Source: Patescibacteria group bacterium (GTDB lineage Bacteria > Patescibacteriota > Minisyncoccia > Phycocordibacterales > JACOZG01). From it: 37,750 bases of DNA. Made by a program: the position numbers and the translations under genes. Below the pieces are notes generated by a model. That model was not told the DNA's origin. It made no database searches and was given only the letters and a program-made list of their open reading frames with translations. Below, piece after piece: positions 6,495 through 36,346 of this stretch. How positions within the stretch are numbered: the first letter of the stretch is position 1; each line of letters begins with the position of its first letter. The stretch covers positions 1-37,750 of the forward strand of contig JBBTRZ010000010.1 in NCBI GenBank assembly GCA_038064935.1, given 5' to 3'.

Positions 6495-6984
6495 GGACGA
6501 CATTGCGAGCATGATCAATGAAGAGAACTCCGTCGAGATGCTCGATCTCGTGCTGGAAGACTTGAGCCATTAACCCTGAGGCGTGGTGAATTAATTTCTT
6601 ACCCGTCGCGTCGAAGGCCGCGACACTGACTCGTTCATAGCGTCGAGTGACACCATAATAATCCTTGACGCTCAAACAGCCCTCGGTGCATTCGATTTGT
6701 CGGCGCGAGCGGCGAGTGATGATCGGGTTCACGAAGACGAGATCATGAGACCACGACTGTGTCAGATCGCGTTCGGGGAAGGCGCGCCGCCCGACGATAA
6801 ACACTCGCCACGCCTCGCCAATCTGCGGCGCGGCGAGAGCGACGCCATCAGGCGAGGCCGAGAGGGTGGCTGACATCTTGGCAATCAGTTGGTCAAGCCA
6901 CGGTGACGGCAGATCACTGATTGGCACCGCTTGAGCAAGTTGGCGGAGTACGGGATCGGGATTTTGTCTAACACGTAGGATCAT
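6487..6984 (-). CDS. def: Peptide deformylase
   Basis: GVALAAPQIG, EGCLS, QHEIEHLDG. Confidence 0.95.
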   Translation of the reverse strand: MILRVRQNPDPVLRQLAQAVPISDLPSPWLDQLIAKMSATLSASPDGVALAAPQIGEAWRVFIVGRRAFPERDLTQSWSHDLVFVNPIITRRSRRQIECTEGCLSVKDYYGVTRRYERVSVAAFDATGKKLIHHASGLMAQVFQHEIEHLDGVLFIDHARNVVHG

Positions 6985-14892: not shown

Positions 14893-16938
14893 ATGACGCG
14901 CCGATCACCAATCCTTCAAGCTTTTTGTTTACTGTTTTTGCTTGATTTAAGTTTAGGTATTTGGGCGATTCAAAATGTGGTGGCCGCGACCGATGCGGTG
15001 CAGGTGAATCTGTCGGTAACGGCGGGTAGCGGGGGTGGCGGCGGACCAGATCCGGACCCGGATCCAGTCCCGATTCCCGGTTGCACCGATGCCGCGGCGA
15101 CTAATTACAATTCGGCGGCCACGGCGGACGACGGCAGTTGCGAGTATCCACCGATCGAGACCATCCCCAATGTCAATGGTTTCAACGCCGTACTCGAGGG
15201 TATAGATGTTCGTCTCTCGTGGCAGAATCCGAGTTTTGCTAATTTCGCGGCGGTGCGTATCGTTCGCCGAATTGGCAGTTTGCCGACCGGTCCAACCGAC
15301 GGCGAGCTCATCTATGACGGCAGTGGCGAAACGACACTCGATACTAGCGTCACCTTCAGCACCCAATATTATTATGTCGCTTTCGTCCGTGACACGGCGG
15401 GGGAGTATTCTTCGGGAGCGGTCTCGAATATCACCACGCCGGCCGAGGAAGAATTGCCGCCGGATGATGAACCACCGCCAGACGCCGAGCCGCCGGGCGG
15501 TGACGGTGATGATGACGGCTCCGGACCCGGTGGCGATGGTGACGAACCGCCGGGTGAAGTCAGTGATCCCTTTGCTAATTTGCCGGAGGTGATGGTCACT
15601 GATCCAATCACGGCTCTCTTGAAAGTTGGCGATTTCACTTTTTATCAGCCCGGGGAACGACAACAGTTTTTTACCGACGATGAAGATATTTTTGTGATTG
15701 GTCGCAAGCCACTGTCGGTCACCATTCCGGCGGGAAAGTTGCCGGAGGCCATGAAGACGATTGGTCTCACGATTATTGATCCCGCGACCCGCCGACCGCT
15801 CGGTTCCTATATTCTTAAAGTGACGCCTGACGGCGCGAATTATACCGCGAGTATCGGCAACACTTTCCCTAACGGGATTTATCCACTCCTCATTTACATT
15901 ATCAATTATCAAGATCAAACGATTAAACGCTTAACGGGTCGGCTGGTGGTGAGTGACGGCGTTGCGATGACTGCCATCGGACATACGCTCACGGACACGG
16001 CGCGAGTCTTGTCACCGGTCGCGATCACGATCGGTCTGGCTTCCGGCGTGATTCAGGGCTTGGCTCTCGCGGAGCGGGTCGGCTCGGCTTACGATCTCTA
16101 TCTCATTGTCCTTCACGGCTGGACTCTCTTATGGCAGACCCTAACCCTGCGTCGCCGGCCGCGGCCGTGGGGAGTTGTCTACGATTCAGTGACGAAGCGA
16201 CCGCTTGACCCGGCCTATGTGATTGTGAGAAAAAATGACGAAGATAAGGGGACGGCCATTACCGACCTCGACGGGCGTTACGCCTTTTTCCTGCCCGCCG
16301 ATACTTACCACATTATTGCCAATAAGACTCACTATCAATTCCCATCGCAGAAGTTAGTGGGCCGGACGCGCGATGAACTCTATGGCAATTTATATTTCGG
16401 CGAATCGCTCACGACGCGAAGTGATGAGGTGGTCAATCGCAATATCCCGCTTGACCCCATCGCCTTCGACTGGAATGAATTTGCCAAGCAAGCTGGGGGC
16501 TTTTTCATCCTTCACTCGCGCCGCGAAGCCAGACGGCGACGAATTCTCAACCTGCTTTACACCATCGGTTTCTCGGTTGGACTCTACAATTTCATTTTTC
16601 ACCCGAGCTCGTTCTCCATCATCATATTCTCACTCTATCTGCTCACGGCTCTAGGACAGTATCTTAAACATCGAATCGGCGCCCGAGCGATTAGTGTTAA
16701 ACGCGCGTCGGGATTGCCCGTACCCTTTGCGATTATTCGGGCTTTCATGCCGGAGGTTAATCAAGAGATTAAAGCGGTGGTGGCCGACGCGCTCGGCCGC
16801 TTCTTCCTGCTCACTCCGCCCGGCCGTTACTATATTACAGTTGAAGAGAAACTGCCCGACGAAACTTATCAGAAAATTTACCAATCACCCCCCCTCGATC
16901 TCAAAAATGGTGTGCTAACCACCGACTTGATTGTTTGA
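14893..16938 (+). CDS. Membrane-anchored surface protein (GCTD..A.NY...A..DDGSC motif, FN3-like domain, acidic Pro linker, carboxypeptidase-regulatory-like domains)
   Basis: Signal peptide, WGVVYDS.TK.PLDPA, TDLDGRY, D.LGRF motifs, TM helices. Confidence 0.7.
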   Translation: MTRRSPILQAFCLLFLLDLSLGIWAIQNVVAATDAVQVNLSVTAGSGGGGGPDPDPDPVPIPGCTDAAATNYNSAATADDGSCEYPPIETIPNVNGFNAVLEGIDVRLSWQNPSFANFAAVRIVRRIGSLPTGPTDGELIYDGSGETTLDTSVTFSTQYYYVAFVRDTAGEYSSGAVSNITTPAEEELPPDDEPPPDAEPPGGDGDDDGSGPGGDGDEPPGEVSDPFANLPEVMVTDPITALLKVGDFTFYQPGERQQFFTDDEDIFVIGRKPLSVTIPAGKLPEAMKTIGLTIIDPATRRPLGSYILKVTPDGANYTASIGNTFPNGIYPLLIYIINYQDQTIKRLTGRLVVSDGVAMTAIGHTLTDTARVLSPVAITIGLASGVIQGLALAERVGSAYDLYLIVLHGWTLLWQTLTLRRRPRPWGVVYDSVTKRPLDPAYVIVRKNDEDKGTAITDLDGRYAFFLPADTYHIIANKTHYQFPSQKLVGRTRDELYGNLYFGESLTTRSDEVVNRNIPLDPIAFDWNEFAKQAGGFFILHSRREARRRRILNLLYTIGFSVGLYNFIFHPSSFSIIIFSLYLLTALGQYLKHRIGARAISVKRASGLPVPFAIIRAFMPEVNQEIKAVVADALGRFFLLTPPGRYYITVEEKLPDETYQKIYQSPPLDLKNGVLTTDLIV

Positions 16939-16969
16939 ATATTTTCTCATTAAATTTTATAATGAAGAT

Positions 16970-17523
16970 ATGAAATTTAAGATGAGGGGGGGTTCACACT
17001 TGTCGAACTTCTCGTTGTCATTGCCATTATTTCACTCCTGTCGAGTATTGTTTTGGCGTCACTTCAAGGAGCTCGTTCCAAAGCCCGCGACAGTAAACGA
17101 GTGCAGGATTTGATCCAACTCCGCACCGCCCTTGAATTATATAAGGCCGATATTGGAAGATATCCCGGTCCTTATGTTGATCCTTCGGAAACTGATTCCA
17201 CAGCCATGAGAGATTGCTGGGATTGCACACCATCAACACCATCGCGTGATCCTAGCAGACTTAGTGCTTTAGATAATTATCTAAATCCTCGGCCGTCAGA
17301 TCCACAAACTCCACCGGGGGGATATCCAGGCAATCAAAGGGGTTACTGGTATAAATCAAACTGCAATGATTATAAAATAATAATTAATGATACTGCAGAA
17401 AATTTGAACAACATACCTTCAACAATGCACGACCCAACTTCATCTTTACGAATAGGAATTTGGTCGTCGGACGAATCCTCATCATGGGGTATCGTTTCAT
17501 CAATCATTTCGTATTGTCCTTAA
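16970..17523 (+). pseudogene. Type IV pilin/GspG-like protein, frameshifted at a G7 tract in the leader
   Basis: GFTLVELLVVIAIISLLSSIVLASL..AR.KARD..R..D; ATGs at 16970/16982 are out of frame with GFTL; in-frame TAA at 16978. Confidence 0.8.
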
Positions 17524-18447: not shown

Positions 18448-18519
18448 GGCCCTATCGTCTAACGGTTAGGACATCGCCTTCTCAAGGCGGCAATCCGGGT
18501 TCGATTCCCGGTGGGGTCA
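18448..18519 (+). tRNA. tRNA-Glu (anticodon CTC), CCA not encoded
   Basis: Cloverleaf: GGCCCTA/TGGGGTC acceptor, TCGCC-TTCTCAA-GGCGG anticodon arm, CCGGG-TTCGATT-CCCGG T arm. Confidence 0.96.
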
Positions 18520-30624: not shown

Positions 30625-31002
30625 ATGAGCATAACTGAACGCTTAAATAAAATCAAGCCCGTGATTCTGCCACTTAACCTCGTCCTCATTGGGACGCTCG
30701 GTTTCGGCCTCGGGCGTTATACGCGGATTGAGGAGGCGAAGGTACCGGTCATGATTGAGCAGACAACTTCGACAACAGCTTCAGGAACTTCGGTCACGGC
30801 TTCACCTAAAGAAGCTTCTGAAACTATCGAAGCTAAATCTGCCGGAACCTTGGTTGGTTCGAAAAACGGCACGAAGTATCACTACCCGTGGTGTGGTGGT
30901 GCCTCGCGGATTAAAGAAGAAAATAAAGTGTGGTTCGCTTCCAAAGAAGAAGCGTTAAGTAGGGGATATACCCCCGCCGCCAACTGCCCGGGGTTGAAAT
31001 AA
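30625..31002 (+). CDS. Membrane-anchored protein with an Ada-type metal-binding C-terminal domain
   Basis: TM, Thr/Ser linker, GSK.G.KYH.PWC...I...N..WF.S.EEA...GY.P..NC. Confidence 0.75.
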
Positions 31003-31418
31003 AAAACCCTGAAACCACGTAAGTGATTCCAGGGTAACCCACGCACCTTGTCTACCCCGACAGCGGAGCGTTTCTTTGGGGGTCTGGGAATTTTGACCCT
31101 TGTAGCTTCCAGTTGTAACGGGTAAGAAGCAAACCCGGCATCGAATCGATCGTTTCAGTAGCTTCAGTAATCGTTGGGGTTTAGATGGTCTAGCGTTCGA
31201 TGCCCGACCTTTTCCATTTTCACCACAACGGTCAATTCATCTGGTGGCGGATGAATCAACAAGACAACACCCGCGTGCCACCAATCCCTTGCTTGCTTCC
31301 GGCCTATACGGGTTATAGGGCAGAAGGAGGAGGGACAAATTGGGGGCTCATTTCCAAGCTTGCACCTCGTTAGCCAGGAAACTTAATACATTCATGTATC
31401 TTGAGCCCTCAACTTCTA
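31001..31418 (-). ncRNA. Candidate large structured ncRNA (about 420 nt)
   Basis: TTGACA(31452-31447)-16-TATACT(31430-31425) promoter, terminator 31001-31035, many helices, no ORF of 60 aa or more. Confidence 0.55.
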
Positions 31419-31528
31419 CCAGCCAGTATACACGAATACTAAATCCTGTCAAGGTCGGGGAGTGGAAGGGTTTAATTATTTAGATTGGGTCGCACAATAT
31501 ACCTTTTCCGTCCTGACCCAGTTGATTT

Positions 31529-31978
31529 TTATACACCCCAGCATTTTTCGCTCCAGTGCCAAGGCCGATCGCCGTCGCGGGCCATGAGCCACATGGCGTA
31601 GCCGATATTCCCTTCGGCCGTGTAAATATCGAAGCCAACCGTGCGACTCTGTTCTAAGTGATATTTCTCATTAATCTGGAAGACACCGACATCGCTCCGA
31701 TTTTTCCGACCACGCACTAATGACCCATCGGGATGGTATTGCTGGAGACGACTCTCACACCGGGCAATTTCGAGCGCCGCGGTCCCATCCACGCCGTAAT
31801 GGGCGCTGGACTCCTTAATGAGCTCGGAGACGGTATAGCCGCGCATTTCCACCACCGCCGGTTGGGTGGCAAAATTTGCGCTCGGGGGATTGACCGTGCC
31901 ACCCACGGCTCCAGTGGCCAAAGAAGCTAGTTGAGACAGAGCCGTCAAGCCGGTTAGACCAATAGTGTTGAAGTTCAT
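31529..31978 (-). CDS. Secreted lysozyme-like/lytic transglycosylase domain protein
   Basis: IARCES catalytic Glu, GVFQIN, NI.YA..L....G..PW..S..CW. Confidence 0.8.
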   Translation of the reverse strand: MNFNTIGLTGLTALSQLASLATGAVGGTVNPPSANFATQPAVVEMRGYTVSELIKESSAHYGVDGTAALEIARCESRLQQYHPDGSLVRGRKNRSDVGVFQINEKYHLEQSRTVGFDIYTAEGNIGYAMWLMARDGDRPWHWSEKCWGV

Positions 31979-31989
31979 AATTTAAGTAG

Positions 31990-32085
31990 CAAAACAGGTC
32001 AGGCAGTAATGCCTAACCTGTCAAATTAGCTTTGTAATATAAGGGTATTTGGTCAACCTAATCTAATCACCCCAAACACCCAAGC
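31990..32085 (-). promoter_or_regulatory. Structured 5' leader with a terminator-like hairpin before the transglycosylase gene
   Basis: Promoter TAGACA-17-TAGGTT; hairpin GGGUGUUUGG/CCAAAUACCC; 12-bp hairpin 31994-32021 followed by UUU. Confidence 0.5.
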
Positions 32086-32113
32086 CAAACCTAGCATACT
32101 TCCCTCCCCTTGT

Positions 32114-32221
32114 CTAGTTTTGAAACACCGACACTATTTTGTCAATAATGGGTCGCAAGTCAATGTCAAAGTAGATTAGAGCCGCGACCACGATGACAAT
32201 TAATAGAATAAACTTAATCAT
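32114..32221 (-). CDS. Small membrane protein (35 aa, MIKFILLIVIVVAALIYFDIDLRPIIDKIVSVFQN)
   Basis: Single TM; ATG 13 nt after the M23 gene stop; below the ORF-track cutoff. Confidence 0.6.
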   Translation of the reverse strand: MIKFILLIVIVVAALIYFDIDLRPIIDKIVSVFQN

Positions 32222-32234
32222 ACTGGCAAATTTA

Positions 32235-33512
32235 TCATAAATAGATCAGGGGATCAAGGTAGGCATCGACACTGATGAGAGGCATGTTGATTTTAGCCCC
32301 GGTACAAGATTTGAAAGCATATTCGCCGACCTTCACCCCTTGAGTCGCGACCACTCCCAAATGTAAATGCGGACCGGTTGAGTAACCGGAGTTGCCGCTA
32401 TAGGCAATCACTTCGCCCGTTGCGATCGTGGCCCCGGCCACGGCCTTAATCAGTGAGAGGTGGCCGTAGACAGTGCTCAAGCCGTTCGCGTGCTTCATGA
32501 GCACCCACTTACCGTATGAAGCGCCAGGGCAAGCGCGATCGGTATCTCCCACAGCGGTAATTACCCCAGTGAGAGTGGCTTTGACCGGTGTGCCAAGAGC
32601 GGCCCGAAAGTCAACACCATTGTGCGTCCCCGAGACATAGAGTCGCTTGGCATCAACCGTTTTGCCGAAGCGTTGGGTGATAAAAATATTATCGAGTGGC
32701 CAGGCAAGGATTCCCTTCCCGGCTGGCGGGATGCTCTTAGGATCAATAATAATTCTTAATTGTGACTCGAAATCAAAGAGTTCCCGCTCGAACGCTTCCT
32801 TCTTGGCCTCCGTCGAGGTCAGAAGGGTTCGATAATTGGCTTCTTTATTCTTTGTTAATTTAAGCAAGCGATCCTTCTCGGTCTTGTTCTCTTCGGCCAA
32901 CACTTTCTGATCGGCGAGTCGCAGCCGCAGACGGTTGAGTTCGAGTTGCTCCTTCTCGGTCGCCGACTTCGAGACTTCCAGCTCATCTCGCAGGGAACGG
33001 AGACTGGAGATGTCGCTCTGGACCTGACCCTGGAGGACCGCCGACCGGTCAAGCTCATTCCAGAAATCGGCGAGGTGGGAAAATCCAAGCATGATCTCAA
33101 ACAAGGATTCGTGGTCGCGATCACGCCACTGCCGCAGACTCTCGCCCAAGGCGATTCGCCGATCACTCACCGTCTGATTTTTACGCCCGATCTCGAGGGC
33201 GATCTTCTCGATCTCGAGTCGGGCGCGTTCAATCTTATTCTCGGTCACTTGAATATCAGCCGCGAATTTCTTGCGAGTCGTCTCAAGTCGCTTGATCTCG
33301 CCTTCTAGCCCCGAGGCCGTTTTCACCGTCGCCGAGAGCTCTCGCCTGAAGCCCTCGATCTCGACTTCCAACCGCTTGATCTCGTTAGTATGGTCGCCAA
33401 TGCGGGAGCGCAGTTCTTCGACCGTGGCAGAATTCGCCGTGCCGAACGCGGCGATAAACGCAAGTGTCGCGACCAAAAATAATATGGTCACTCCCCTACT
33501 ATTGCGAATCAT
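32235..33512 (-). CDS. Coiled-coil M23 peptidase (EnvC/murein hydrolase activator-like, metal ligands intact)
   Basis: Signal peptide, long coiled coil, HNGVD, YGHL, STGPHLH. Confidence 0.88.
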   Translation of the reverse strand: MIRNSRGVTILFLVATLAFIAAFGTANSATVEELRSRIGDHTNEIKRLEVEIEGFRRELSATVKTASGLEGEIKRLETTRKKFAADIQVTENKIERARLEIEKIALEIGRKNQTVSDRRIALGESLRQWRDRDHESLFEIMLGFSHLADFWNELDRSAVLQGQVQSDISSLRSLRDELEVSKSATEKEQLELNRLRLRLADQKVLAEENKTEKDRLLKLTKNKEANYRTLLTSTEAKKEAFERELFDFESQLRIIIDPKSIPPAGKGILAWPLDNIFITQRFGKTVDAKRLYVSGTHNGVDFRAALGTPVKATLTGVITAVGDTDRACPGASYGKWVLMKHANGLSTVYGHLSLIKAVAGATIATGEVIAYSGNSGYSTGPHLHLGVVATQGVKVGEYAFKSCTGAKINMPLISVDAYLDPLIYL

Positions 33513-34800
33513 GAAAAATTTTTCGCAAACGCGCCAGCGTTTCGGCTTGGCCTAGAATCTCGGCTAGGGTGAAGGGATCCGGCGATCGCTCCTTCCCGGT
33601 TAAAACTACGCGCATGGTGGAGAGAACCGCCGCTCGACCCGCCTCATCAGCGTAAGGCATAAGCACCGATTTGATTATTTGGCTTTGGAAATCGGCGCCG
33701 GGGATAGATTCTAGCAAGGTGATAGTCTTGCTTAAGGTGGTTGGGGCCTTCAATAAATTTTTATCCACGATTGGCGGGGCTAGAAAATAATCATATTCAC
33801 CGCTTTCAATTAGGGTGTGGCCTTCGGTCAAAGTCGAGACGCGCTCGCGGATAATTGGCGTTACTTTGGCGCGGAGTGCTGACGGCCAATCGTTGGGAAA
33901 AATGTCGTCCCAGATTGATTCCGGTACCCGGCGCAAGTATTCGCGGTTTAGCCAGTTAAGTTTCTCAAGATTGAAAATTGCCCCCCCTTTTTGAATACGG
34001 TCGAGTGAAAATTGTTTGATTAATTCTGACCTAGAAAATATTTCTTGATCCGTGCCGGGGTTCCAACCGAGCAAAGCCAGATAATTTAGGAGTGCGTCGG
34101 GTAGAAATCCTTGACCGCGATATTCGGTAACGCTCACTGCGCCATGTCTTTTTGATAATTTAGATCGATCGGGCGCAAGGATAAGCGGGATGTGAGCGTA
34201 GATTGGCCGCAGCACTTTAAGCGCCTCTTGGATCAAGATTTGTCGCGGCGTGTTGGAGATGTGATCTTCGCCGCGAATCACATGGGTCACCCCCATCTGC
34301 CAATCGTCCACCACGACCGCGAAGTGGTAGAGTGGCTCGTCGAGACTCTTGGCGATGACGAAGTCACCGAGCTCGGTGGTATCAAAACTGATCTCACCCC
34401 GAATCAGATCTTGGAAAATAATTCTCTGCCCCGGATTGCGCAGGCGAATCACCTCTCCCCTCTTCGTCTTGTCGTTGTTGGTATTATTAATGTCTTCTTT
34501 AGAAATATAAGCCGTGCCAGCCGAAATTAATTTCTCCAACGCTTCACGATAAATTGCCGTCCGCTCCGATTGGCGGTAAATTTCGTCAAAATCGAGCTCG
34601 AGCCACTTGAGACTTTCGAGAATATCCGCCTCAAACTCGGAGTTAGATCGTTCGCGGTCAGTGTCTTCGAAACGCAAAATAATTTTACCACCCATTTGCT
34701 TGGCAAATAAATAATTAAACAGCGCGGTTCTAGCGCTACCGACATGGAGCGGCCCCGTCGGACTCGGCGCAAACCGCACAATCACTGGTGTTGTTGGCAT
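33499..34800 (-). CDS. gltX: Glutamate--tRNA ligase
   Basis: RFAPSPTG.LHVG.ARTAL, HVIRGEDH, KLSKRHG. Confidence 0.95.
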   Translation of the reverse strand: MPTTPVIVRFAPSPTGPLHVGSARTALFNYLFAKQMGGKIILRFEDTDRERSNSEFEADILESLKWLELDFDEIYRQSERTAIYREALEKLISAGTAYISKEDINNTNNDKTKRGEVIRLRNPGQRIIFQDLIRGEISFDTTELGDFVIAKSLDEPLYHFAVVVDDWQMGVTHVIRGEDHISNTPRQILIQEALKVLRPIYAHIPLILAPDRSKLSKRHGAVSVTEYRGQGFLPDALLNYLALLGWNPGTDQEIFSRSELIKQFSLDRIQKGGAIFNLEKLNWLNREYLRRVPESIWDDIFPNDWPSALRAKVTPIIRERVSTLTEGHTLIESGEYDYFLAPPIVDKNLLKAPTTLSKTITLLESIPGADFQSQIIKSVLMPYADEAGRAAVLSTMRVVLTGKERSPDPFTLAEILGQAETLARLRKIFHDSQ

Positions 34801-34953
34801 ATTGCGTCCATTCTAGCAACCAGTTCAATTTTAAGGAAATCAAATATTTTAACCATCGCTAAAAAACATTATTATAAGCCATATTCTATCAATTTACCCA
34901 CAAAATCATCTACAAACGCTTGACAATATTTATGGTTTGTGTATACTGGTGGG

Positions 34954-35325
34954 TAGACTTGAAAATTAAGTAGTTGCAGAAGAGGGTAAGGATCGGTAGC
35001 TCCAAAAAAGCCAGCGTGGTGCTCAGTCACGAAACACTGGGCGTTCCAAAATGAACAGGTTAGGGTTTTCTGTCTTTGGCCCAAAAGCACCAACCCCCTA
35101 CCTTATTCTGTATGCTTCCGAGTAACGCCATGAATTCCACTGGGAAGTGTTATGTCTACCAATCGATACAGTCACAGCCCTGTGCTGATTTATGCTGCCA
35201 ACGATTGGATCAAGGATGTATTACAAGTGGAAACTCTCTGATTTAGGGAAAGTCTAGCCAACTAACCCAATGAGATCAGCGAGTAATGGTTGAACCCCCG
35301 CTATGGCGATGGGGGTTTTTCTTTT
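34954..35325 (+). ncRNA. Candidate large structured ncRNA (about 370 nt)
   Basis: TTGACA(34920-34925)-16-TATACT(34942-34947), plus-oriented terminator 35293-35325, nested helices, only short ORFs. Confidence 0.5.
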
Positions 35326-35332
35326 GCAAAAA

Positions 35333-36346
35333 TTAGCGTTTAGAAAGAATCGTGCGTTTGTAAACCGAGAGGTGTTCGAGGGCAATGCCGGTGCCCTTGG
35401 CGACGCAGAAGAGCGCTTCATCGGCGAGAATGGCTTTGACACCGGTGCGCCGATAAACCAGCTCCGGCAGATTGCGGAGCATCGAAGAACCGCCGGTCAT
35501 AATAATTCCATGATCAATGATGTCCGCCGAAAGTTCGGGCGGCGTGTCTTGGAAAACGGTTTTGATCGCTCGAATAATTTCTTTGAGTTCCCCGTCAATC
35601 GCTCGGACAATCTCATTGGTTTTAATTTCAGCAAACCGCGGCAGGCCGCTCATGAAATCGCGGCCCTTAATGGTGTAGACCAACTCATTTTCGATCGGAA
35701 TGGCCGAGCCGATCTCAATCTTCACTTCCTCGGCCGTCCGATCACCGATCGCCAAACTAAAGGCCTTTTTAATATAATCCGCGATCGCCTGATCAATCTT
35801 ATTGCCGGCATATTTAACCGAGGTCGAAGCGACAATACCCCCGAGCGAGATCACCGCCACATCGGTCGTGCCGCCGCCGATGTCCACAATCATGTGCCCA
35901 CGCGCTTCATGAATTGGGACGCCGGCGCCCAAGGCCGCAAGAATCGGTTCCTTGACCACATAAGCATTTTTGGCCCCGGCCTTAATCGCCGCCTCGATCA
36001 CCGCTCGCCGTTCGGTGGAGGTGACGCCGGCCGGCACCGAGATCATCACCTCCGGCCGGAAGAGGTTCCAACGCCCGAGCGCTTTATTAATATAATATTT
36101 TAGCATCGTCTCGGTCACGCGATAGTCCGCAATCACGCCGTCGCGCATCGGCCGATAGGCAATGATACTGTCGGGCGTCTTGCCAATCATATCTTTGGCT
36201 TCACTCCCCACCGCGAGCACGCGATTGTCAATTTGGGAAATTGCGACGACCGACGGCTCGCTCAAGACAATCCCCCGCCCGGGCATGAAGACCAAGGTGT
36301 TGGCCGTACCGAGGTCAATTCCTAATTTAGTGACGAAGAAGTTCAT
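35333..36346 (-). CDS. mreB: Rod shape-determining protein MreB
   Basis: GIDLGTANT, EPSVVA, RPM.DGVIAD, VDIGGGTT, TGG. Confidence 0.96.
   Translation of the reverse strand: MNFFVTKLGIDLGTANTLVFMPGRGIVLSEPSVVAISQIDNRVLAVGSEAKDMIGKTPDSIIAYRPMRDGVIADYRVTETMLKYYINKALGRWNLFRPEVMISVPAGVTSTERRAVIEAAIKAGAKNAYVVKEPILAALGAGVPIHEARGHMIVDIGGGTTDVAVISLGGIVASTSVKYAGNKIDQAIADYIKKAFSLAIGDRTAEEVKIEIGSAIPIENELVYTIKGRDFMSGLPRFAEIKTNEIVRAIDGELKEIIRAIKTVFQDTPPELSADIIDHGIIMTGGSSMLRNLPELVYRRTGVKAILADEALFCVAKGTGIALEHLSVYKRTILSKR

Follow-up and report, generated by a model that had tools for sequence, protein, structure and literature searches.

The window analysed here is a 37.75-kb stretch of DNA that makes up the whole of contig C10 of G000, the genome of a Patescibacteria group bacterium (640 kb in 40 contigs, 94% complete), and its DNA is present in 8 groundwater metagenome runs. 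The element under study, termed unit 1, is a predicted RNA cassette at 34955..35322 of the plus strand, between the genes gltX and mreB, and was compared with another RNA unit of the same window, the 31.4-kb unit. We conclude, with a probability of about 0.55, that unit 1 is a self-contained promoter-to-terminator cassette that might function in cis and is confined to this species and the relatives closest to it. Taken by itself, the part of this reading that describes a noncoding, autonomous orphan cassette is highly probable. Unit 1 is neither the second member of a pair of structured RNAs nor a peptide gene.

The cassette is delimited by two signals, both of which had been pointed out in an earlier reading of the sequence by a model that used the letters alone (the sequence-only reading) and both of which hold. 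The first is a sigma-70-type promoter, TTGACA-16-TATACT, at 34920..34947 of the plus strand, with the -35 element at 34920-34925, the -10 element at 34942-34947 and a GTG directly 5' of the latter. It matches the consensus at 11 of 12 positions and is the best promoter between 30500 and 36000, tied with the minus-strand promoter of the 31.4-kb unit (31452-31425). It is followed by the discriminator and start region GGTGGGTAGACTTGAAAA (34948..34965, plus strand), in which A34955 is the predicted transcription start. The second signal is an intrinsic terminator, AACCCCCGC...GGGGGUU plus UUUUUCUUUU (35292..35322, plus strand), which consists of a hairpin of -14.7 kcal/mol followed by a U-run, faces mreB and ends at 35322, 11 nucleotides (nt) from the mreB stop. 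Read on the minus strand, the same hairpin has -12.1 kcal/mol and is followed by CAACCAU, with no U-run. The hairpin is hence predicted to be effective for plus-strand transcription only and not to be a canonical terminator of mreB; the region after mreB contains no U-run terminator for that gene on the minus strand. Between the two intact signals lies a predicted noncoding transcript of ~368 nt (34955..35322, plus strand) with no Rfam match and no homologue, in agreement with the earlier proposal of an autonomous unit of approximately 370 nt. Judged from these signals, unit 1 has what a stand-alone small RNA (sRNA) gene would possess, namely a promoter of its own, an intrinsic terminator of its own and no credible open reading frame (ORF).

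The coding potential of unit 1 centres on a 44-codon ORF with five cysteines (35112..35246, plus strand), which the sequence-only reading had described as lacking a clear Shine-Dalgarno (SD) sequence. The description is accurate: there is no 4-nt SD core at 4-12 nt upstream, and the ORF has neither a homologue nor a Pfam match. Such a core precedes none of the 15 ORFs of at least 8 codons in unit 1. Likewise, a 56-residue ORF starting from TTG at 35076 has no homologue among 30-98-residue proteins and no Pfam match, and a 73-residue antisense ORF has no Pfam match. Further evidence comes from near-relative contigs in two metagenome runs of another study (X6 and X8), which possibly derive from more than one organism. 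The best-supported differences of these contigs include 1-nt indels at 34973, 35048, 35059, 35082, 35094, 35103 and 35106 and a 5-nt deletion at 34967, with unlike sets of indels in the X6 and X8 contigs; a further 626 substitutions and 10 indels exist beyond those listed. An X8 contig has 9 letters in place of 35158-35218 (a 59-to-9-nt replacement), with a net loss of 50 nt inside the 44-codon ORF and removal of the CCAAUCG/CGAUUGG hairpin. An X6 contig (record 10) can be aligned from 34919 to 35158 (~90% identity; 24 letters differ and 12 positions are gaps), and the similarity ends at 35158. Because of the indels and the 59-to-9-nt replacement, every frame is broken on both strands.

It is therefore very unlikely that unit 1 is the mRNA of a small Cys-rich peptide of 44 or 56 residues. 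In favour of a peptide are the presence of the ORF with its five cysteines and the occurrence in relatives of units upstream of gap that carry small SD-led ORFs (L009, L024 and L091). The missing SD is not decisive either, as most genes of G000 are without one: a 4-nt core of AGGAGG lies near an early start in 19% of 346 long ORFs, versus 6.6% at internal starts. Against these stand the lack of any homologue, SD or Pfam match, the replacement inside the ORF in X8, the loss of similarity from 35158 onwards in X6, and the unit at the equivalent site of a relative, G003, which has no counterpart of the 44-codon ORF. The ORF is probably not a gene. Of the earlier suggestion that unit 1 is either a second co-regulated large noncoding RNA or a small-peptide mRNA, the noncoding option is the more likely one and the peptide is not upheld; the structured and co-regulated parts fail on evidence given below.

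Searches for homologues recovered the signals of unit 1 and not its body. In blastn comparisons with 41 relatives, only the promoter and start region (query 15-66) or fragments of the terminator found matches, in 7 other genomes. The body gave 5 short hits against 401 genomes of the order (E 0.003-0.01), as chance predicts. No match was obtained in phages, viral contigs or plasmids, or elsewhere in G000, the latter including tblastx. Of 80 metagenome loci fetched via GluRS, the gltX product (best 74% identity), none matches unit 1 or the 31.4-kb unit, and mreB lies within the flanks of none of the 80. A single-sequence covariance model of the 5' part of unit 1 (R2, covering the 5' domain described below) found no match in the 31 genomes of the family, the one hit having an E of 0.14; with filters off, its best E over 11 candidate loci was 0.13.

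The covariance search against known families that had been proposed as a check likewise gave no family for unit 1. At gathering scores, Rfam 15 yields only a tRNA at 18448 in the entire window. When the threshold was relaxed to E up to 10 over 30900-35400, the sole hit in unit 1 was ctRNA_p42d at 19.6 bits (gathering score 50; E 1.2), which is not meaningful because it covers just the terminator hairpin. It is accordingly extremely improbable that unit 1 is a paralogue of the 31.4-kb RNA or a diverged housekeeping RNA (RNase P RNA, tmRNA, 6S RNA or signal recognition particle (SRP) RNA). Its length of ~370 nt and strong promoter do resemble those of stable-RNA genes, and neither 6S RNA nor SRP RNA is found anywhere in G000. 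However, RNase P RNA (RF00010) lies at C2:41413-41806 (92 bits, E 3e-29) and tmRNA (RF00023) at C19:28930-29343 (97.5 bits), with no tmRNA reported by ARAGORN in the window. 6S RNA (RF00013) has no match in G000, and relaxing E to 10 over the region brings up none either; the 6S fold is rod-like, ~185 nt long and has a central bubble, and thermodynamic prediction gives unit 1 two multibranched or long-hairpin domains over 368 nt. SRP RNA (RF00169 and RF01854) is without a match in G000 or the region, and it is not expected in this genome because no Ffh or FtsY that would need it is detectable. Beyond the terminator hairpin no Rfam match appears at E up to 10, unit 1 is not recognised by a covariance model built from the 31.4-kb RNA, and the conservation within the genus expected of a housekeeping RNA is not seen.

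The sequence-only reading had further described unit 1 as structured. To evaluate this, minimum-energy folds were expressed as z-scores against dinucleotide shuffles (n=100 or 200). The whole unit has a z of -1.28, with 9 of 100 shuffles folding as well; the body without the terminator also has a z of -1.28 (16 of 100), and the opposite strand a z of -0.82. The fold of unit 1 is thus inside the shuffled range, and there is no alignable homologue in which covariation could be sought, so the claim is not sustained. Four of the five helices named earlier do occur in the minimum-energy fold (GCAGAAG.AGGGUA / UACCUU.AUUCUGU, GCUCAGU/ACUGGGC, CCAAUCG/CGAUUGG and CUGAUUU/GAGAUCAG), whereas the fifth, UAACGC/GUGUUA, can pair but lies outside that fold. 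The unit is not uniform along its length. The 5' domain (34975..35113, plus strand), a long closing helix around four hairpins, has a minimum energy of -44.3 kcal/mol and a z of -2.13 (6 of 200 shuffles as good), its limits having been picked after the fold was seen. The 3' half (35126..35270, plus strand) is variable and not detectably structured (z 0.03).

In these respects unit 1 differs from the 31.4-kb unit (31006..31452, minus strand; an RNA of ~410 nt). The two are alike in promoter type, start motif and approximate size, and both have a terminator abutting a convergent gene, but the 31.4-kb unit is conserved and structured and unit 1 is neither. The fold of the 31.4-kb unit has a z of -3.39, reached by 0 of 100 shuffles, and in G003 it has a full-length counterpart with 78% identity. 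R1, a covariance model built on the 5' 182 positions of its RNA, finds this RNA in 5 of the 31 family genomes, with a patchy spread over three genera. Compensatory changes are seen in 8 of 33 pairs, and the four closest sequences show no variation in GUCCCUCCUCCUU and GCCACCAG. The 31.4-kb unit has no Rfam match and is a candidate new RNA family; a match to NsiR1 at 30999-31045 (minus strand; 18.8 bits, E 2.7) is just the terminator hairpin and provides no evidence of a cyanobacterial sRNA. When the window and 14 loci were searched with R1 at E up to 10, only 31230-31417 matched, and unit 1, the G003 unit and the other candidates did not. Local alignment of the two bodies gives a z of 0.9 against shuffles, which together with the R1 result confirms the earlier impression that they are not homologous. 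Unit 1 behaves as a young or neutral transcript and the 31.4-kb unit as a conserved structured RNA. The comparison implies that a strong promoter, a terminator and plausible helices are insufficient for calling a structured noncoding RNA in these genomes. Unit 1 is one more lineage-restricted orphan transcription unit and, being without detectable conservation, cannot define a class of RNA.

The sequence that the two units share is confined to the promoter and start region. The earlier claim of a near-identical promoter and start region is correct in that 34919-34957 is similar to the 31.4-kb unit (blastn, 79% identity, E 0.006), the start regions reading GGTGGGTAGACTTGA in unit 1 and GGCTGGTAGAAGTTGA in the 31.4-kb unit. 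It goes too far in implying a private link between them, as the promoter is a family-wide trait. The pattern TTGACA-N13-GTGTATAMT, with at most one mismatch, is present in 30 of the 31 genomes of the family, and the number of sites per genome ranges from 0 to 17. In G000 this extended pattern has 6 sites, versus 0 for a reversed control, which also has 0 sites in nearly all family genomes; the exact pattern TTGACA-N15-18-TATA[CA]T has 9 sites in G000. Of 54 different promoters of this type that we read in G000 and in the fetched loci of relatives, 24 are followed within ~190 nt by the start of an SD-led ORF of at least 100 codons. Among these 24, at least 12 protein-gene promoters have GG-GGCAG or GGTAG at the same fixed distance from the -10 element as in unit 1. 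The shared start region is accordingly the discriminator and +1 context of the generic strong promoter of the lineage. Co-regulation of unit 1 with the 31.4-kb unit, which had been proposed from the shared -35, -10 and start motif, loses its basis, since this combination often stands before protein genes; a common promoter module is compatible with common regulation and no demonstration of it.

Two observations were made alongside this survey. SD use is low in G000, yet genes behind strong promoters often have a clear SD. A locus on contig C17 of G000 (L185, ~16700-17096, minus strand) has another near-consensus promoter, TTGACA-16-TATACT with one mismatch to the extended pattern. The sequence behind it contains no SD-led ORF and matches no Rfam family at E up to 0.1; this locus is possibly one more orphan RNA unit.

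The similarity also extends upstream of the -35 element. The upstream part of the module (34860..34919, plus strand) contains the block ATAAGCCATATT at 34875-34886 and an A-rich stretch 5' of the -35. Blocks of the form TTATTTTAAGCCATATTT ... CACAATCYGGAAAAnCGC precede unrelated downstream sequences in four relatives (G002, G003, G004 and G005) and on contig C8 of G000, where a copy of the module occupies 6779-6922. An alignment of 10 units defines a promoter module of ~100 nt, alike from about -85 to +12, that a subset of the units have in common although their downstream sequences are unrelated. Unit 1 itself combines a similar upstream region with a downstream body that cannot be aligned, which is what is expected of a reused promoter. 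A DnaA-box-like TTACCCACA at 34894-34902 matches the consensus at 8 of 9 positions, by eye; a genome as large as G000 is expected to contain such a match by chance, and the box was discarded. Promoter reuse in prokaryotes has been described as a concept (Nijveen, Matus-Garcia and van Passel, PMC3575422). Unit 1 fits this idea in that its module of ~100 nt precedes unrelated sequences, both in single genomes and across genomes of the genus. Compared with such reused or mobile promoters, the cargo of unit 1 is noncoding, and terminal repeats, target duplication and a transposition mechanism were not found. Consistent with this, a mobile element was rejected as the origin of unit 1, there being no terminal inverted repeats, no target duplication and only repeats of chance size.

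The site at which unit 1 lies is variable. In G000, the cell-shape gene mreB (35333..36346, minus strand; Pfam MreB_Mbl, E 1e-130) is convergent with unit 1, and gltX, which encodes glutamyl-tRNA synthetase (33499..34800, minus strand; Pfam tRNA-synt_1c, E 8e-89), has the same direction as mreB and is divergent from unit 1; the gap without coding sequence that holds unit 1 measures 530 nt. An ORF directly follows mreB in 25 of 30 family loci. In G001 the genes after mreB are those for DNA_pol3_delta2 and RRF, and since both are on contig C17 in G000, unit 1 occupies a synteny break. Both genes are intact on C17 and have left no trace at unit 1, and together with the lack of a tblastx match in G000 this led us to reject a pseudogene remnant. 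We also rejected a gltX leader, such as a T-box, on the minus strand, as there is no Rfam hit on either strand and the fold of that strand has the z of -0.82 given above.

In G003, whose mreB is 83.7% identical in DNA to that of G000, the site has the same promoter type, a terminator abutting mreB, an unalignable body of ~270 nt and an extra ORF cassette. A hairpin of this G003 unit (UUUCCUAGCU...AGCCGGGAA) was considered as kin of a hairpin in the 31.4-kb RNA and dismissed (z 1.1-1.2, no match to R1). In G005 the site after mreB is taken up by an ORF cassette and a terminator. A member of another genus with the older gene order, G014, has a convergent noncoding unit (L037, ~215 nt) after mreB that is unrelated to unit 1, with the promoter TTGACA-N18-TATAAT, the terminator GCCCATCCGCCGCGGATGGGC plus a T-run and no Rfam match. 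Position, orientation, promoter and terminator recur around bodies that are unlike one another. If unit 1 has a function, this makes the act of transcription against mreB read-through, or its antisense nature, a likelier basis for it than the sequence of the RNA.

We therefore picture unit 1 as follows. The cassette most likely arose through reuse of the ~100-nt promoter module at the variable site between mreB and gltX. The strong housekeeping-type promoter would start an RNA at about 34955, and the intrinsic terminator would stop it at about 35322, before antisense entry into mreB. Its function would be largely independent of the RNA sequence and exerted in cis: unit 1 would fire head-on against read-through from mreB towards gltX, and its RNA, fully complementary to the mreB read-through, might uncouple mreB from gltX or mark the read-through RNA for cleavage. 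The cis effect is our inference from this arrangement. If unit 1 is taken as a noncoding orphan cassette, a cis or antisense role can be put forward tentatively, the lack of any function is doubtful, and a trans-acting RNA that works through the 5' domain is more doubtful still.

Several points weigh against the proposal of a cassette acting in cis. Transcription of unit 1 and both ends of the transcript are predicted from sequence signals. The argument from the missing SD against coding is weak in G000. The 31.4-kb unit has the same promoter type and is not antisense to an operon, which means that the position of unit 1 may be accidental. The recurrence in G014 is only weakly beyond chance, as by a rough estimate the probability that 25 other genomes contain a further unit of this kind after mreB by chance is ~0.15-0.2. 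In one relative the site lacks unit 1 altogether: an X8 contig (record 25), whose mreB differs at 51 of 332 letters, runs from 34773 straight on to 35334 with just 76 letters separating gltX from mreB, and unit 1 is thus dispensable. Finally, the 5' domain is the only part that folds mildly better than shuffles and is ~90% identical in a near relative, which fits an RNA whose sequence matters, and the tetramer CCAA occurs 8 times in unit 1 versus 1.4 expected, the 95th percentile of the maximum for any tetramer in 1000 shuffles being 7. This excess hints at a motif-based role and is borderline once all tetramers are considered.

The last two observations are the main evidence for a different function, in which unit 1 is a trans-acting regulatory or protein-binding RNA whose 5' domain, perhaps together with single-stranded CCAA, binds a target, with the 3' half as a spacer. 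We regard this as unlikely. It would account for the very strong promoter, for a 5' domain that folds better than 194 of 200 shuffles and for the fact that, as read off the predicted fold, 6 of the 8 CCAA copies are in unpaired stretches. Yet no homologue exists even within the genus, the limits of the 5' domain follow from the fold itself, and CCAA is not shared by the G003 unit. A search of 420 translation-start regions for targets gave a best duplex of -42.4, which does not stand out from those of 15 shuffles (-37.0 to -47.6), and neither CsrA nor Hfq was found in the 94%-complete G000.

Similar considerations apply when unit 1 is set beside known systems. The protein-sponge RNAs CsrB and CrcZ are ~370-410 nt long and carry repeated short motifs. 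Unit 1 resembles them in its length and in having a short motif that is mostly unpaired in the predicted fold, but differs in the borderline enrichment of that motif, its absence from the G003 unit and the failure to find CsrA or Hfq; to our knowledge CCAA is no known binding motif. Stand-alone (trans-encoded) sRNA genes are intergenic and have a housekeeping-sigma promoter and an intrinsic terminator. Unit 1 shares with them its intergenic location, its own promoter and terminator and the lack of a credible ORF, but at ~368 nt it is longer than most and has no homologue, no standout target and no Hfq found alongside. Phage morons are promoter-gene-terminator cassettes inserted between adjacent genes. 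Like them, unit 1 is an autonomous cassette between two genes, mreB and gltX, that are 76 letters apart in a relative; unlike them, it is without a protein gene and without similarity to phage records or viral contigs.

A simpler account, which we consider about as unlikely as a trans-acting RNA, holds that unit 1 has no function at all: a copy of the reused strong promoter landed at a rearrangement-prone site, the nearest hairpin serves as its terminator and the transcript is neutral noise. The bodies in G000 and G003 cannot be aligned in spite of the similarity of their mreB genes, the 3' half is replaced in near relatives and the whole unit is absent from one of them, the overall fold is no better than that of shuffles, and the promoter module also precedes unrelated sequences. 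On the other hand, for a genome of 640 kb it is costly to maintain 530 nt without coding sequence that include a near-consensus promoter. Both signals, promoter and terminator, are intact in G000, G003 and G014, and the terminator is placed exactly so as to shield mreB from antisense transcription.

A more general, and at present speculative and rather improbable, extension of the cis proposal is that Patescibacteria with ultra-small genomes form new RNA genes through the spreading of a strong ~100-nt promoter module into permissive sites, that the spot 3' of mreB was hit repeatedly (G000, G003 and G014, with unrelated bodies that all converge on mreB), and that the resulting fast-evolving RNAs of 200-400 nt were kept for an effect in cis on the neighbouring operon that does not depend on their sequence. 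If it were true, unit 1 would be a snapshot of the birth of an RNA gene. If the recurrence next to mreB is beyond chance, promoter reuse and the de novo birth of RNA genes could be tested in genomes for which strong reduction is assumed.

Of greater interest than unit 1 are the conserved 31.4-kb RNA and the SRP pathway, which appears to be absent. SRP RNA is detected in none of the 31 family genomes with RF00169 and in 0 of 1 with RF01854. The Ffh M domain (PF02978) is likewise found in 0 of 31, TIGR00959 in 0 of 5, including closed genomes, and PF00448 in 0 of 4, and the six frames of G000 contain no SRP-GTPase motif string. Across 121 genomes of the order, all matches to PF00448 are short and N-terminal (positions 2-59 of a profile of 196, with no score above 25.5 bits). 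The same searches for SRP protein families were positive in 14 of 14 control genomes. A loss of Ffh, FtsY and SRP RNA across the whole order would be notable if true; no statement on the absence of the pathway came up in literature searches or in a passage search of PMC8321541.

Another set of cassettes came to light in the relatives. L009 (G003), L024 (G002) and L091 (G005) are homologous promoter-to-terminator units of ~330 nt, each containing an SD-led ORF of 27-32 codons in a matching position. They lie upstream of a gene whose product starts with M(K/R)KIRVxINGLGRIGR, which we take to be GAPDH-like. In our own translation, the small ORFs of G003 and G002 share an RARGRP motif.

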